DNA from: Escherichia phage 241
Sequence record: OR924452
Reading direction: 5' to 3' (one strand)
Length of the DNA: 64,000 nt
Each line of letters opens with the position of its first letter. The first letter of the stretch is position 1. This document shows, piece by piece, positions 44,991-48,607 of this stretch. The position numbers were made by a program, and so were the translations under genes. The notes under the pieces are model-generated. The model was not told the DNA's origin. It did not search any database and saw nothing but the letters and a program-made list of their open reading frames with translations.

Positions 44991-45071
44991 TTAACTTCCT
45001 TAACCCCAGATTGTTATGAAGTCGGCATGCACACCTTCTTCATCTTCAGGAAGTCACACTCATTGTTCTGG

Positions 45072-45144
45072 TTGCTTCAACTGGATTCGAACCAGTGACC
45101 TCTCCCTTATCAGGGGAACGCTCTACCTACTGAGCTATGAAGCA
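45072..45144 (-). tRNA. tRNA-Ile (anticodon GAU)
   Basis: Hand-folded cloverleaf: 7-bp acceptor, D-arm GCUC/GAGC, anticodon loop CUGAUAA, T-arm ACUGG-UUCGAAU-CCAGU; 73 nt. Confidence 0.7.
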
Positions 45145-45498: not shown

Positions 45499-45582
45499 TG
45501 GTGTGAGTGGATGGATTCGAACCACCGCGCTGTTACGGGGAGATTTACAGTCTCCTGCATTCGACCGCTCTGCCACACTCAC
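45499..45582 (-). tRNA. tRNA-Tyr (anticodon GUA), type II with long variable arm, encoded CCA
   Basis: Hand-folded: acceptor GUGAGUG/CACUCAC, 3-bp D-stem, anticodon loop CUGUAAA, 12-nt variable region, T-arm GGUGG-UUCGAAU-CCAUC. Confidence 0.65.
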
Positions 45583-45589
45583 ATTTAGT

Positions 45590-45659
45590 CTACCGCCGCG
45601 TGCTGGGCCACGCTCGAGGACATCGGCCATCCTTCCTCAGCTAATCCACGCGGCGGTAG
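45590..45659. repeat. 13-bp perfect inverted repeat (CTACCGCCGCGTG / CACGCGGCGGTAG), 44-nt spacer
   Basis: Read directly; lies immediately 5' of tRNA-Tyr on the transcribed strand. Confidence 0.5.
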
Positions 45660-45826
45660 ATTTGGATCAGAGTGTACGGTGTAGCATTCCGCAGGGGTGC
45701 ACCTACTGTAGCCCTTCCACTCTGAAATTGGTGGGTGTTACTTCCGTCGGGTTCAGATTCCGTTCGGCTATTGGACTTCGCTTCAAGAGCTTGTCGTTCG
45801 CGTACTTCGTGCTTACTTGCTTTCGT

Positions 45827-46261
45827 TCACACCCATTGTCTGGTACGTATTTCTTGAATAACTTCGTCAAACAAGAAATCCTTTAACCATTTTACTCCCA
45901 CCACCTGATTATTCTTAGGCGGCGTTACCCTCAATCTAACATTCTTTGGATATTGTTTAGGATCCACCAAGACTTCTGTGCAAGTCTCAGGATGATAGCC
46001 ATAATACAAGTCAACAACATCCGAATGGTAAACCGATTTACATTTACCATTGTAATAATTCGTGGAACTGGCATCAAGAATAAAGGATGCCTTATCTTGT
46101 AAAAGGGTTTTGCATTGTACTTTGTACAAGCGCCCTTCTATATCCAAAACAAAATCATACGGCGCATTATCACCGAAAGGTTGAGAAACTGTTAGCCCCT
46201 GCTCAGTGCATTTGAACAAGAACCTAGTCTCACCTATCATACCCCGTTGTTTCGAATTCAA
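45827..46261 (-). CDS. hypothetical protein (144 aa) within tRNA island; possible nuclease-like
   Basis: ORF between tRNA-Tyr and tRNA-Met; PYDFVLD...E.RLYKVQCK loosely resembles a PD-(D/E)xK motif. Confidence 0.35.
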   Translation of the reverse strand: MNSKQRGMIGETRFLFKCTEQGLTVSQPFGDNAPYDFVLDIEGRLYKVQCKTLLQDKASFILDASSTNYYNGKCKSVYHSDVVDLYYGYHPETCTEVLVDPKQYPKNVRLRVTPPKNNQVVGVKWLKDFLFDEVIQEIRTRQWV

Positions 46262-46273
46262 ATTATTCCGCCT

Positions 46274-46498
46274 TTATCCGTGCTTGTTCGCTTCAATTGC
46301 CCTTAATTGAGCATCAGCGTCAGCTTTGGTGTCATGTGTCCCAAGAACCTTCGTCTTGGTGTGGTCAAGGACAACCCACTTGTCGCCTCGCTTTTCAACA
46401 AACTCAACAATCTCTTTGTTGTCAGTAGCGAGGCCATCCCACTCAGCAAGAAACTCACCGAACGTTTTCATCATACTCACCAATCGTTTATTGAACAA
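46274..46498 (-). CDS. hypothetical protein (74 aa)
   Basis: ORF within tRNA island. Confidence 0.35.
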   Translation of the reverse strand: MFNKRLVSMMKTFGEFLAEWDGLATDNKEIVEFVEKRGDKWVVLDHTKTKVLGTHDTKADADAQLRAIEANKHG

Positions 46499-46591
46499 CT
46501 GGTTTATTTAGGTGCTCCCGAGGCGGTATTTTAATCCCGCGATCCCATCTCGCCTGTCGTAGACCGGAGCATGCTGACAGTCCAACATATT

Positions 46592-46667
46592 TGGTGACCC
46601 TGGCTGGACTTGAACCAGCGACCAATCGATTATGAGTCGACTGCTCTAACCACTGAGCTACGGGGCC
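46592..46667 (-). tRNA. tRNA-Met (anticodon CAU), encoded CCA
   Basis: Hand-folded: acceptor GGCCCCG (one C-A mismatch), D-arm GCUC-AGUGGUUA-GAGC, anticodon loop CUCAUAA, T-arm GCUGG-UUCAAGU-CCAGC. Confidence 0.7.
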
Positions 46668-46781
46668 AAAATTGGCGGGGTCTGAGGCTTTTCACCTCAC
46701 CTGCTGGATTGGCCTCCAGCTGTTTGTTCTCTCTGGGGACTCGCTGTCCGGACAGCTGTCCCTTAAACTATCGCCCCTTAA

Positions 46782-46892
46782 TTCATATTGCTGTGGGTAG
46801 TACCAAAGCGGAGATTTGGAATCTCTCACCCTATAGCGACCTTTAAACCGTTTGATCAGTCCGATCCAAAGGACTACCCACAGCAATATGAA
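46782..46892. repeat. 20-bp inverted repeat (TTCATATTGCTGTGGGTAGT / ACTACCCACAGCAATATGAA), 71-nt spacer
   Basis: Read directly from sequence. Confidence 0.55.
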
Positions 46893-47091
46893 TTTGTTGT
46901 GTCCAATCAAGGACTGTCAACCTTTTATCCCGTTTGTGCATGATCAGTTCATGCAGGCCTCTTTGTGCGCCTCACAGCAACGCGCTTCTGTAGGTCATTG
47001 ACTTGCACCGTAGTCTCACCACAGGCGTTTATTTTTCCAGGGCTTTCCACTTACAAGTCTTAACCAGATCGGGATACGGGCTTGTAAGATC

Positions 47092-47169
47092 GGATTGGAC
47101 ACAACTTTGATGGCTCTAGGACTAAAGATCCCGCGTCACCCATAGACTTGGTTTATAAAATCTAGAGCC
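47092..47169. repeat. 18-bp perfect inverted repeat (CAACTTTGATGGCTCTAG / CTAGAGCCATCAAAGTTG), 42-nt spacer
   Basis: Read directly from sequence. Confidence 0.55.
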
Positions 47170-47560
47170 ATCAAAGTTGCAACCAATGTCGCAACTCGCA
47201 CTTCAGCGTCTTCGTCTCGCTTCAGCACTTGTCCTCTACGTTCGGACCAAACGAGGCTGGCCGACAGAAACATAACACCACTCATCACTAGAGCGAGGAT
47301 GTGGTTGATAGCCACGATGTTACGTCTCTGTCGTAGAGTGATCACACTTGTCAGGATGATCACTGTTTTGCGAACTTGAAAATACTGCGCCTGTCTCGGG
47401 TTTCCCCTTAGTTCGGCCTCTCATTGTTCGTCTGGTCAGGGAGCTACCCTTGATGACCAGCTTATTTTGAGATCTTCGCCAGCACCCACTAGTGTCTAGA
47501 ATATGTAGGTGTCGAGGTCTGCAAGGCATTGCCCTATTTCATACAACGCTCTCTCAAGTG

Positions 47561-47694
47561 CGCAAATCGAAGTTCTCTGGGCTTAACAGGTTCGACCCAA
47601 CATGTTGTATATCGCCTAACTTGCTCATGGGACGGACACATCTGTGTACAGACCTTGAGGGTTAAAAGATATACCCAGAGAACTTCGATTTGCG
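47561..47694. repeat. 21-bp perfect inverted repeat (CGCAAATCGAAGTTCTCTGGG / CCCAGAGAACTTCGATTTGCG), 92-nt spacer
   Basis: Read directly from sequence. Confidence 0.55.
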
Positions 47695-47840
47695 TTGTGG
47701 GGGCAAACCCCCACACGGCCACTTCTTTGACAGGGATTGCCAGCCCTGGGGATTCCACTGTTTAAGGCTTTATCCCATAACGCCTGAGGCGCGTTTTAAC
47801 TTATTGAGCTTGCATAACTGCAAACTGATGCGCTGTGAGA

Positions 47841-47973
47841 CACATCTTTGAGGGCACTCAGTGTACAACAGGCTCCGATATTTCATAGGGCATTACTGCC
47901 TCGGATTTAAGTTGCCTTTCTCCTGAAACTCCATGCAGTCTCGCGTCTGACGCGGAATGCCCTCAAAGATGTG
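47841..47973. repeat. 16-bp perfect inverted repeat (CACATCTTTGAGGGCA / TGCCCTCAAAGATGTG), 101-nt spacer
   Basis: Read directly from sequence. Confidence 0.55.
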
Positions 47974-47975
47974 GA

Positions 47976-48096
47976 GCCGTTTTAGGGAGTCGAACCCAAA
48001 TGCTTGGCCAGCGCTGACCTTACATCCCATCTGACTTAGGCAACCCACCTCTGCTACTCAGGAGCTTATCCCCTTTGGACAGTCAGATATAACGGC
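47976..48096 (-). ncRNA. tRNA-like module: T-arm-like (GGG-UUCGACU-CCC) + acceptor-like pairing GCCGUU/AACGGC enclosing ~120 nt, CCA-like 3' end
   Basis: T-loop and 3' ...AAACGGCUCCA read directly; 5' partner GCCGUUA found 127 nt upstream; no anticodon arm. Confidence 0.2.
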
Positions 48097-48100
48097 TTTG

Positions 48101-48190
48101 GGATTGGAGGAAGGACTCGAACCTTCTCATGTACGCTCCTGATTTCTCAGAAGTAGCCTGCTCCCATCGACCTATTAAGTACACGCTCCG
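48101..48190 (-). ncRNA. tRNA-like module with perfect T-arm (GAAGG-UUCGAGU-CCUUC), acceptor 3' strand and CCA; no cloverleaf
   Basis: 3' end ...CCUUC-CUCCAAU-C-CCA is tRNA-like; only a 1-mismatch 5' partner too close for a full tRNA. Confidence 0.25.
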
Positions 48191-48395
48191 CTCATTGTTC
48201 GGCGGGAGCTTATTAATCACACCCTCCCACCTATTGTTAGTGCGCCGAATTTTGTTATGAGGAATCGGAAGACCTCACTGACTTATAGGCTATTACGCCG
48301 CCATCAGAACTTCGGAATCATTAGCAGTTATTTGCTTGGTCAGTTTCTAAAAACCCGCAAAGTCACGCACAACGAAAACGAAAACCTGTTTGAGT

Positions 48396-48451
48396 CCTAA
48401 ACCTACCTGTCTTGGTCTCACATCGATATGAGTGGCCAGGACTCAAACAGC
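48396..48451. repeat. 12-bp perfect inverted repeat (CTGTTTGAGTCC / GGACTCAAACAG), 32-nt spacer
   Basis: Read directly from sequence. Confidence 0.45.
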
Positions 48452-48513
48452 TTGCCGTTCAGTGAGTTAACTATACTTTGTAACCCGTTATTGATAAAAC
48501 CTTTTATTTTGTT

Positions 48514-48607
48514 GGCGAGGGTGTGGAATCGAACCACACTTCTGAGCGCTACCCCGTGTCACCACCTCACCATCGATTTGCCGGAACTTACGCATCCGGC
48601 CTCGCCT
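48514..48607 (-). ncRNA. tRNA-like module: acceptor GGCGAGG/CCUCGCC + T-arm GUGUGG-UUCGAUU-CCACAC, CCGG-hairpin in place of D-arm, no anticodon arm
   Basis: All 5-bp/7-nt-loop combinations in the central 42 nt tested by hand; none pair. Confidence 0.25.

Follow-up and report, generated by a model that had tools for sequence, protein, structure and literature searches.

A probable free-standing homing endonuclease gene of the PD-(D/E)XK type in the tRNA region of Escherichia phage 241

Introduction

What does a protein-coding gene encode that is embedded between the tRNA genes of a virulent phage, and how did it get there? The question is raised by Escherichia phage 241, a Vi01-like Kuttervirus of the family Ackermannviridae. 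Within a stretch of 64,000 nucleotides (nt) of its DNA (sequence record OR924452; in the following the window), an open reading frame (ORF) of 144 amino acids (aa) is located between the genes for tRNA-Tyr and tRNA-Met. A first-pass annotation of the sequence had proposed that it may encode a mobile or tRNA-processing nuclease, with segB of phage T4 as a possible analogue. The ORF list, ARAGORN and Rfam confirmed its exact coordinates (45827..46261) and placed it on the minus strand. Our analysis indicates that the ORF is probably a free-standing PD-(D/E)XK homing endonuclease gene of the I-Ssp6803I family, i.e. a selfish mobile gene that is not borne by an intron.

Protein family and predicted fold

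The product of the ORF is a full-length member of the PDDEXK_5 / I-Ssp6803I family. PDDEXK_5 (PF11645) is its sole Pfam match, with an E value of 1.6e-25 and 90.2 bits compared with a gathering cut-off of 26.1, and residues 1-131 of the protein span positions 1-137 of the 138 positions of the model. Corresponding matches were obtained with phrog_5018 of the PHROGs collection (E 2e-33; function not assigned) and with the PADLOC model “HEase” (homing endonuclease; E 8e-8), and the NCBIfam search of the ORF product returned no match. Neither a GIY-YIG nor an HNH domain was found in the protein with Pfam, and the lack of a GIY-YIG domain documents that it is not a Seg protein. The only sequence match in the PDB is 2OST, the structure of I-Ssp6803I, which was recovered with an E value of 4.5e-6 from the single sequence and of 6.5e-15 with a profile of nine sequences. 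An AlphaFold (AF2) model based on an alignment of 105 homologues reached a predicted local distance difference test score (pLDDT) of 91 and a predicted template modelling score (pTM) of 0.85, whereas a five-sequence alignment had given a pLDDT of only 38. In a Foldseek search of the PDB with the former model, four chains of 2OST occupy ranks 1-4 with template modelling (TM) scores of 0.66-0.76, the best of them at TM 0.76/0.74 and an E value of 2.5e-9. Family profile and predicted fold thus lead to the same endonuclease, and the suspected nuclease of the first-pass annotation is now backed by a family assignment and a predicted I-Ssp6803I-type fold.

The loose PD-(D/E)xK-like pattern that had raised this suspicion proved to be real. 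It reads E11 ... P34-Y35-D36 ... Q49-C50-K51 in the ORF, and E11, D36, Q49 and K51 belong to the 12 residues that are invariant in the 105 homologues (K4, G7, E11, P28, G30, D31, Y35, D36, Q49, K51, Y78, D84). D36 and Q49-x-K51 align with the YD and QVK of 2OST (YD...KVQxK motif; KVQVK in 2OST). The predicted active site accommodates the PD ... (D/E)xK pattern with a glutamine in the acidic position and a glutamate in helix 1, the roles of these residues being assigned by alignment. A helix-1 glutamate is arranged in the same way in Hjc, the archaeal Holliday-junction resolvase, whose catalytic arrangement E-D-E-K resembles the E11-D36-Q49-K51 of the window protein.

A housekeeping enzyme, either an Hjc-type Holliday-junction resolvase or a nuclease that processes tRNA precursors, has to be weighed at this point. 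Hjc shares the minimal PD-(D/E)XK core, and together with the SPARDA nuclease domain the archaeal Hjc resolvases are the second-best structural matches (TM about 0.5; for Hjc 0.42-0.52 with E values of 1.7e-3 or worse); moreover, the gene is located within a polycistronic tRNA region. However, I-Ssp6803I gives a much stronger match, which extends over the full length, no sequence match with Hjc was obtained, and Hjc is a core recombination enzyme whereas the window gene is sporadic. About 97% of the close relatives lack the gene, yet they replicate and process the same tRNAs. To our knowledge, no PD-(D/E)XK enzyme of the PDDEXK_5 family processes tRNA, and we regard a housekeeping function as highly improbable. 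Of the two roles envisaged in the first-pass annotation, the mobile nuclease is retained because of the patchy distribution and the precise empty sites described below, and the tRNA-processing nuclease finds no support because the gene is sporadic and its closest characterised relative is a DNA endonuclease.

The window allele shares 74-75% nucleotide and 80-81% amino-acid identity with the other alleles of Ackermannviridae. Synonymous sites are saturated in these comparisons (synonymous divergence, dS, >2.7 or undefined), the nonsynonymous divergence (dN) amounts to about 0.14 and dN/dS to about 0.05. The ORF is under strong purifying selection and represents a real gene; together with the Pfam and PHROG matches, this dN/dS ratio rules out a chance ORF.

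Distribution and insertion site

The 1.3-kb region around the gene matches 286 phage records, and its flanks are up to 99.7% identical to the Salmonella phages PS5 and GEC_vB_GOT and to Escherichia phage ECML-4. When 50,697 phage records were searched with tblastn, close homologues of the protein (80-83% amino-acid identity) turned up in only eight records of Ackermannviridae, namely SPTD1, PM10 (two records), Chennai, SM5, CBA6, FKP10 and cp19, which corresponds to about 3% of the approximately 286 related records. Two Logan assemblies also carry the gene. The comparison of presence and absence thus reveals a gene with few carriers and, as shown below, precise empty sites in two genera. The following features of the window, all on the minus strand, are needed to retrace its insertion.

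45827..46261, minus strand: proposed homing endonuclease gene, 144 aa; TTG start 46261-46259, TGA stop 45829-45827 (ORF list)
45729..45834, minus strand: element Y, RNA-like, about 106 nt; 6-bp (base pair) terminal stem GGGUGU/ACACCC followed by ACCA; downstream homology flank
46262..46273, minus strand: 12-nt junction between the stop of the upstream coding sequence (CDS) and the TTG; AGGCGG (Shine-Dalgarno-like, 46273-46268) followed by AATAAT
46274-46474, minus strand: CDS of 66 aa, phrog_3684, function not assigned; upstream homology flank, kept by relatives with and without the endonuclease gene
45499-45582, minus strand: tRNA-Tyr (GTA), downstream neighbour, co-directional with the endonuclease gene (ARAGORN and Rfam)
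46592-46667, minus strand: tRNA-Met (CAT), upstream neighbour, co-directional with the endonuclease gene (ARAGORN and Rfam)
45069-45144, minus strand: tRNA-Ile (ARAGORN and Rfam)
46505..46511, minus strand: CTAAATA motif upstream of the 66-aa CDS; candidate promoter, by annotation in SPTD1

The order in PS5 is tRNA-Ile, tRNA-Tyr, tRNA-Asn, small CDS and tRNA-Met, without the endonuclease gene. A BLAST comparison with the window placed the breakpoints at 45730/45731 and 46273/46274 between flanks of 99% identity, including that formed by the 66-aa CDS. A cassette of 543 bp (45731-46273), which would have replaced 185 bp of PS5, was considered as the mobile unit and had to be revised, because element Y is native to many endonuclease-less phages. 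Y is present at the locus with and without the gene, and the copy of the window is 100% identical to those of CBA6 and of the endonuclease-less contigs L014 and L021. The native origin of Y argues for a mobile unit that essentially consists of the ORF and a short leader.

This delimitation is in accordance with the comparison of empty and filled sites. Endonuclease-less contigs of Taipeivirus and Kuttervirus read ...CGCCA GACAA(T/C) GGGTGTGA(A)ACGAAAGC..., and the filled site reads ...CGCCA GACAAT / TAGTGTAGGAACGC ATG ... ATTA / TGGGTGTGAAACG.... The insert of about 437 bp comprises the short leader and the ORF, whose stop codon is provided by the flanking Y: the last codons and the stop (TGG GTG TGA) lie within the 5' strand of the terminal stem of Y, and some 96 nt of its about 106 nt extend beyond the ORF. 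In SPTD1, SM5, CBA6, FKP10, cp19 and the Logan contigs L023 and L024 the gene starts 20-24 nt past the 3' CCA of tRNA-Asn, and Kuttervirus does not differ in this insertion position from the separate genus Taipeivirus. A patchy presence at one fixed site, with a precise empty site, is the pattern of intronless homing as in the Seg and Mob genes of T4. Inspection of the empty site by eye gave no convincing conserved palindrome; the arms measure only 4-6 nt and the centre shifts between the genera.

The same spacer harbors other elements in phages that lack the gene. A 108-nt element X takes the place of Y in the PS5 type, and four Kuttervirus sequences of IMG/VR (L010, L014, L017, L021) contain a tRNA-like element W of about 140 nt (GTCGGG ... 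GGGGTTTGAATCCCC ... CCCGACGACA) between tRNA-Asn and Y. The occupation by the endonuclease gene, X or W in different phages characterizes the spacer between tRNA-Asn and Y as a hot spot of insertion and variation.

The length of the product depends on a 1-nt indel immediately before the GGGTGTG of Y, at the 3' end of the gene: one form has 143-144 aa and ends in WV, and the other has 163 aa and reads about 20 codons into Y, as a comparison of SPTD1, SM5, cp19, L023 and L024 with the window, FKP10 and CBA6 showed. Due to this indel the C-terminus varies among otherwise similar alleles.

Horizontal transfer

The clearest trace of horizontal movement was found in CBA6. Its backbone is that of a PS5-like Kuttervirus (98.5-99.6% identity), but a tract of about 560 bp that ranges from the 3' part of tRNA-Trp via tRNA-Asn to the end of the endonuclease gene is 93-100% identical to the Taipeivirus FKP10. 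The endonuclease genes of the two phages are 98.8% identical, whereas the identity outside the tract drops to 60-85%. This mosaic documents an intergeneric transfer into the same site, in which tRNA genes were carried along.

The backbone of the window is in turn near-identical to that of CBA6, whereas the endonuclease alleles are very different and saturated at synonymous sites, thus indicating that two near-identical backbones independently took up different alleles. Along the ORF, the identity between the window and CBA6 ranges from 0.6 to 0.9 and jumps to 1.00 at the stop codon, and the flanks of the window are 99-100% identical to its relatives despite the saturated allele. The history of the gene is therefore discordant with that of the backbone, and flanking markers were co-transferred. 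The signal of co-conversion in the flanks of the window itself is weak: the 36 bp upstream contain two mismatches to PS5, and the 550 bp downstream contain none.

Start codon and gene neighborhood

The Pfam alignment begins at position 1 of the model and takes in residues 1-7 of the protein (MNSKQRG). These include K4 and G7, which do not vary in the 105 homologues, and N2, which hardly does; all three are encoded only if translation begins at the TTG, which is preceded by AGGCGG at a distance of 6 nt. The alignment, the conserved residues and the upstream AGGCGG designate TTG as the likely start codon. Public annotation of Escherichia phage 241 contains a 100%-identical “hypothetical protein” of 137 aa that begins with M8, and judged from the conserved N-terminus this annotation probably places the start too far downstream. 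The contig index has no record of the exact protein, either in the 144-aa or in the 137-aa form. Internal ATG starts were annotated both for the phage 241 protein and for its homologue in Enterococcus phage EFP01 (P0001; L027), although the conserved N-terminus begins at TTG.

No more than 12 nt lie between the TTG and the stop codon that ends the upstream CDS. This 66-aa CDS, which was absent from the first-pass annotation, separates the ORF from tRNA-Met. In SPTD1, a CTAAATA motif at the same place as that of the window is annotated as “Kuttervirus late gene promoter”; on the basis of this annotation in a relative, the motif may drive the 66-aa CDS and the endonuclease gene, but chance alone should produce a given 7-mer several times in 64 kb. 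A hairpin resembling an intrinsic terminator (minus strand, 44847-44825) ends the block of tRNA genes and ORF. The G+C content of the ORF amounts to 39.5%, compared with 44.7% for the whole window and about 50-55% for the adjoining RNA genes, a difference that also speaks for horizontal movement.

Loss of the tRNA-Asn gene

The phage of the window is the only carrier of the endonuclease gene without tRNA-Asn. Neither ARAGORN nor Rfam detected a tRNA-Asn gene in the window, and neither half of it matches anywhere in the 64 kb with up to three mismatches allowed. Alignments with SPTD1, CBA6, FKP10 and cp19 revealed that the relatives hold a 76-nt tRNA-Asn gene and a 14-nt leader where the window has its 12-nt junction. 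At the 5' junction, the window reads TAA-AG-GCGG-AATAAT-TTG and SPTD1 reads TAA-A-[tRNA-Asn...GCCA]-AATAAT-AGTTGCAGGAACAC-ATG. Compared with SPTD1, the window thus lacks the body of the tRNA and the 14-nt leader and has TTG in place of ATG, and its GCGG-AATAAT resembles the GCCA-AATAAT of SPTD1. At the 3' junction, ACC AGA CAA TGG GTG TGA corresponds in 17 of 18 nt to the empty-site sequence GCC AGA CAA TGG GTG TGA, which includes the CCA of the tRNA.

Two histories may account for these junctions: tRNA-Asn may have been deleted from an SPTD1-like arrangement, or the ORF may have come to lie at the tRNA's 3' end by insertion or recombination. Both histories connect the element with the loss of a tRNA gene, and we infer that element-linked, imprecise recombination removed tRNA-Asn. 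The anticodon loop of the tRNA-Asn of PS5, in our reading CCGUUAA, has a C at position 33, where tRNAs normally have U. Given this departure from the universal U, a copy of the PS5 type may already have been dispensable. The PS5 copy (L001 1940-2015) and the SPTD1 copy (L002 2642-2717) differ by compensatory changes in the anticodon stem, and PS5-like sequences, at 90-95% identity, apparently form the commonest class of tRNA-Asn.

Two other arrangements that would connect the ORF with a tRNA gene were considered and rejected. A group I intron gave no Rfam signal on 1.2 kb even at an E value of 10. A split tRNA is contradicted by the flanks of the ORF, which contain no tRNA halves, and by the relatives, in which an intact tRNA-Asn is located upstream of the gene.

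The altered 5' junction also bears on the state of the allele. A once mobile gene that is now poorly expressed or inactive, and thus stranded between fixation and loss, would be in line with the TTG in place of ATG, the missing 14-nt leader and the deletion of the adjoining tRNA-Asn, with an allele found in one genome only and with the four relatives whose 3' end is frameshifted to the 163-aa form, which speaks for an unstable C-terminus. Yet the ORF is intact and retains 12 of the 12 family-invariant residues. The distance of the window allele from two outgroups does not exceed that of the other alleles (0.579 versus 0.580 identity to the protein P0004), and the private changes of the window allele are conservative (I/L/V, S/T, F/Y). 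Expression is moreover conceivable, because AGGCGG is located at an acceptable spacing of 6 nt before the TTG and the nearby upstream stop codon allows coupled translation. A decaying gene is accordingly a minor alternative that we consider unlikely.

Proposed mode of mobility

For the probable homing endonuclease gene, the mode of mobility can be outlined by analogy with characterised systems. The gene would be transcribed from the minus strand together with the tRNA cluster, and its product would assemble as an oligomer, comparable to the I-Ssp6803I tetramer. In a mixed infection, the enzyme would introduce a site-specific double-strand break into the tRNA region of a related endonuclease-less phage. 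The break would probably fall within or close to the spacer that separates the 3' CCA of tRNA-Asn from Y, which is the spot disrupted by the insertion of the gene itself, and the carrier would be immune to cleavage because its own insertion splits the putative site. Recombinational repair from the endonuclease-bearing genome would finally copy the gene and neighboring markers into the recipient, and the window allele would still be capable of such movement.

Several points weigh against this proposal. Just as the T4 enzymes act on modified T4 DNA, the enzyme would have to cope with the hypermodified thymidine in the DNA of Ackermannviridae (PMC11721090). The window allele lacks the ATG and the 14-nt leader of the other alleles, and its putative expression rests on the TTG. 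The allele is known from one genome and was not found in the phage collection, IMG/VR or the JGI metagenomes; nothing nearer than 83% to the window protein was recovered, and no close relative in IMG/VR or the JGI metagenomes. The nearest backbone relatives of the window (PS5 type) carry X instead of Y after tRNA-Asn, and due to this replacement they may lack the empty-site sequence altogether. A resistant tRNA-Asn allele in the carriers was considered and failed as a strict rule: the SPTD1 allele is represented by 64 records at an identity of at least 99%, most of them without the endonuclease gene. Finally, no biochemical or genetic test of any phage member of PDDEXK_5 was found in the searchable literature.

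Comparison with known systems

I-Ssp6803I cuts a tRNA-fMet gene and recognizes a pseudo-palindrome of 23 bp as a tetramer (PMC3384342), and reviews describe the PD-(D/E)XK homing endonucleases as a small, intron-borne and essentially cyanobacterial family (PMC3384342, PMC3943268). The enzyme of Synechocystis PCC 6803 (2OST) belongs to the same Pfam family as the window protein, shares the full-length fold (TM 0.76 for the predicted model) and the YD...QxK motif, and both genes are associated with tRNA genes. The two proteins share an identity of about 21% and differ in the residue that corresponds to E11, which is Q in I-Ssp6803I. In contrast to I-Ssp6803I, which is borne by a group I intron inside a tRNA gene, the window gene is free-standing and located in an inter-tRNA spacer of a virulent phage.

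SegB of T4, to which the first-pass annotation had pointed, is the closer analogue with respect to genomic setting. It recognizes the T-psi-C motif of tRNA genes and drives the inheritance of its own gene together with nearby tRNA genes (PMC2330249). Both genes are free-standing among phage tRNA genes and absent from close relatives, and the tract of tRNA-Trp, tRNA-Asn and endonuclease gene in CBA6 mirrors the co-conversion of tRNA genes by SegB. However, SegB is a GIY-YIG enzyme whose fold and catalytic chemistry are unrelated to those of PD-(D/E)XK enzymes, and the likeness is convergent rather than homologous. The analogy consequently holds for the role of a free-standing homing endonuclease in a tRNA cluster, but not for the protein family.

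SegB has furthermore been found to amplify tRNA-Tyr and thereby to escape the Septu defence (T4/T6), and its homologues are statistically associated with tRNA genes (PMC13096335). This draws attention to a domesticated nuclease that is useful to the phage, either because breaks in the tRNA region promote the amplification or exchange of tRNA genes against host defences that cleave tRNAs, or because the nuclease excludes co-infecting relatives. The association with tRNA genes is shared by the PDDEXK_5 homologues, the window gene adjoins tRNA-Tyr and is under strong purifying selection, and in the carrier FKP10 a 1000-bp stretch with tRNA-Met and tRNA-Arg is exactly duplicated in tandem shortly upstream of the gene. 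The period of this duplication is suspiciously round, though, and may reflect an assembly artefact. No duplication is visible around the gene in the window, which lost a tRNA and gained none, and a gene carried by only about 3% of the relatives is of no general benefit. Domestication would also be compatible with a homing endonuclease and would add to this explanation rather than replace it; as an account of its own we give it little weight.

In the “Jug” jumbo gut phages, stand-alone PDDEXK_5 genes were included in a count of homing endonucleases (PMC12880540), so that this kind of phage gene is already known. They belong to the same Pfam family as the window gene but to different hosts and another phage lineage, and in the one passage that mentions PDDEXK_5 they are only counted, with neither a site nor a target nor a link to tRNA given (PMC12880540). 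We found no paper that characterises a phage member of PDDEXK_5 or its link to tRNA clusters in a literature coverage that is incomplete.

Our analysis turns a “hypothetical protein” of the window into a well-supported candidate for a mobile nuclease gene with a corrected likely start codon, and offers this gene as an explanation for the absent tRNA-Asn. It adds a second, unrelated enzyme family whose tRNA association parallels that of SegB. PDDEXK_5 could show whether tRNA clusters are hot spots by virtue of conserved, symmetric targets, and it also bears on the question whether such nucleases shape the tRNA repertoires of phages and their counter-defence. The defined empty and filled sites represent ready substrates.

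Association of the wider family with tRNA genes

A profile search recovered 758 proteins of about 140 aa at E values of up to 1e-5, many of them encoded on contigs of 100-170 kb. A tRNA gene is located within 2 kb in 62 of 69 IMG/VR loci, within 300 bp in 51 and within 100 bp in 31. Clustering at 70% identity reduced these loci to 32 lineages with corresponding values of 27, 24 and 18; for random genes we expect a few percent, a rough estimate derived from typical sizes of tRNA clusters rather than a computed value. In the 69 loci, the nearest tRNA on each side is always encoded on the same strand as the gene. Homologues between tRNA genes are also present in Vibrio phage phi-pp2 (Straboviridae), Pectobacterium phage My1 (Demerecviridae), Pseudoalteromonas phage J2-1, Enterococcus phage EFP01 (Herelleviridae) and a Logan contig with a 58%-identical homologue, and in two of these cases from isolated phages and Logan the homologue overlaps the next tRNA. 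Free-standing PDDEXK_5 genes occur in Ackermannviridae, Straboviridae, Demerecviridae and Herelleviridae and in a phage classified only to Ounavirinae.

A tentative extension of these findings, which we advance as a speculation with a smaller rather than a larger chance of being correct, is that the PDDEXK_5 enzymes form a widespread but little-noticed lineage of homing endonucleases specialised on the tRNA clusters of large phages, convergent with SegB, which might recognize pseudo-palindromes of tRNA genes and drive tRNA mosaicism. As they act as symmetric oligomers, they may read the pseudo-palindromes that tRNA stem-loops provide in the DNA, as the intron-borne I-Ssp6803I does with the tRNA-fMet gene. 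If this were true, PDDEXK_5 enzymes would be among the main forces behind the gain, loss and exchange of genes for tRNAs and tRNA-like elements between phages, and the missing tRNA-Asn of the window and the intergeneric tract of tRNA-Trp and tRNA-Asn would be examples of such mosaicism. The enzymes might then also drive the amplification of tRNAs that evades defence.

Additional observations in the tRNA region

A candidate structured RNA of about 72 nt (45590-45661, minus strand) is located between the endonuclease gene and tRNA-Tyr and was called by neither ARAGORN nor Rfam. In a comparison of 10 Kuttervirus and Taipeivirus sequences, it exhibits a terminal stem of 14 bp, eight pairs of which show compensatory double changes, and an invariant inner core; the stem is followed by CCA in most relatives and by CUA in the window. 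It resembles the small stable RNAs of the T4 tRNA cluster. Next to it, a conserved RNA-like hairpin (45668-45726, minus strand; CAGAGUG...CACUCUG followed by AUCCA) has a tRNA-like end, as does element Y. The covariation in Y is weak, with mostly one-sided changes.

Beyond tRNA-Met, the region 46780-48460 contains a run of long, near-perfect inverted repeats with arms of 21-26 nt and a spacing of 39-92 nt, for example 46780-46801/46873-46894 and 47561-47581/47674-47694, and a repeat resembling a T-arm follows at 48517-48537. Neither protein genes nor tRNAs were called in 46780-48460, and the repeats suggest further structured RNAs or pseudo-tRNAs of the tRNA island.

The exact tandem duplication of the Klebsiella phage FKP10 (L004), with its period of 1000 bp, occupies positions 1-1300 and ends up some 700 bp ahead of the endonuclease gene. 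It covers tRNA-Met, tRNA-Arg and small CDSs, which are present in a single copy in the Taipeivirus carrier cp19. The duplication could represent an endonuclease-linked segmental amplification like that of SegB or, given its round period, an artefact of assembly. Two public labels in the same record look wrong, namely “methyltransferase” for the endonuclease homologue (L004 2001-2432) and “head maturation protease” for a small upstream CDS (L004 1632-1811).

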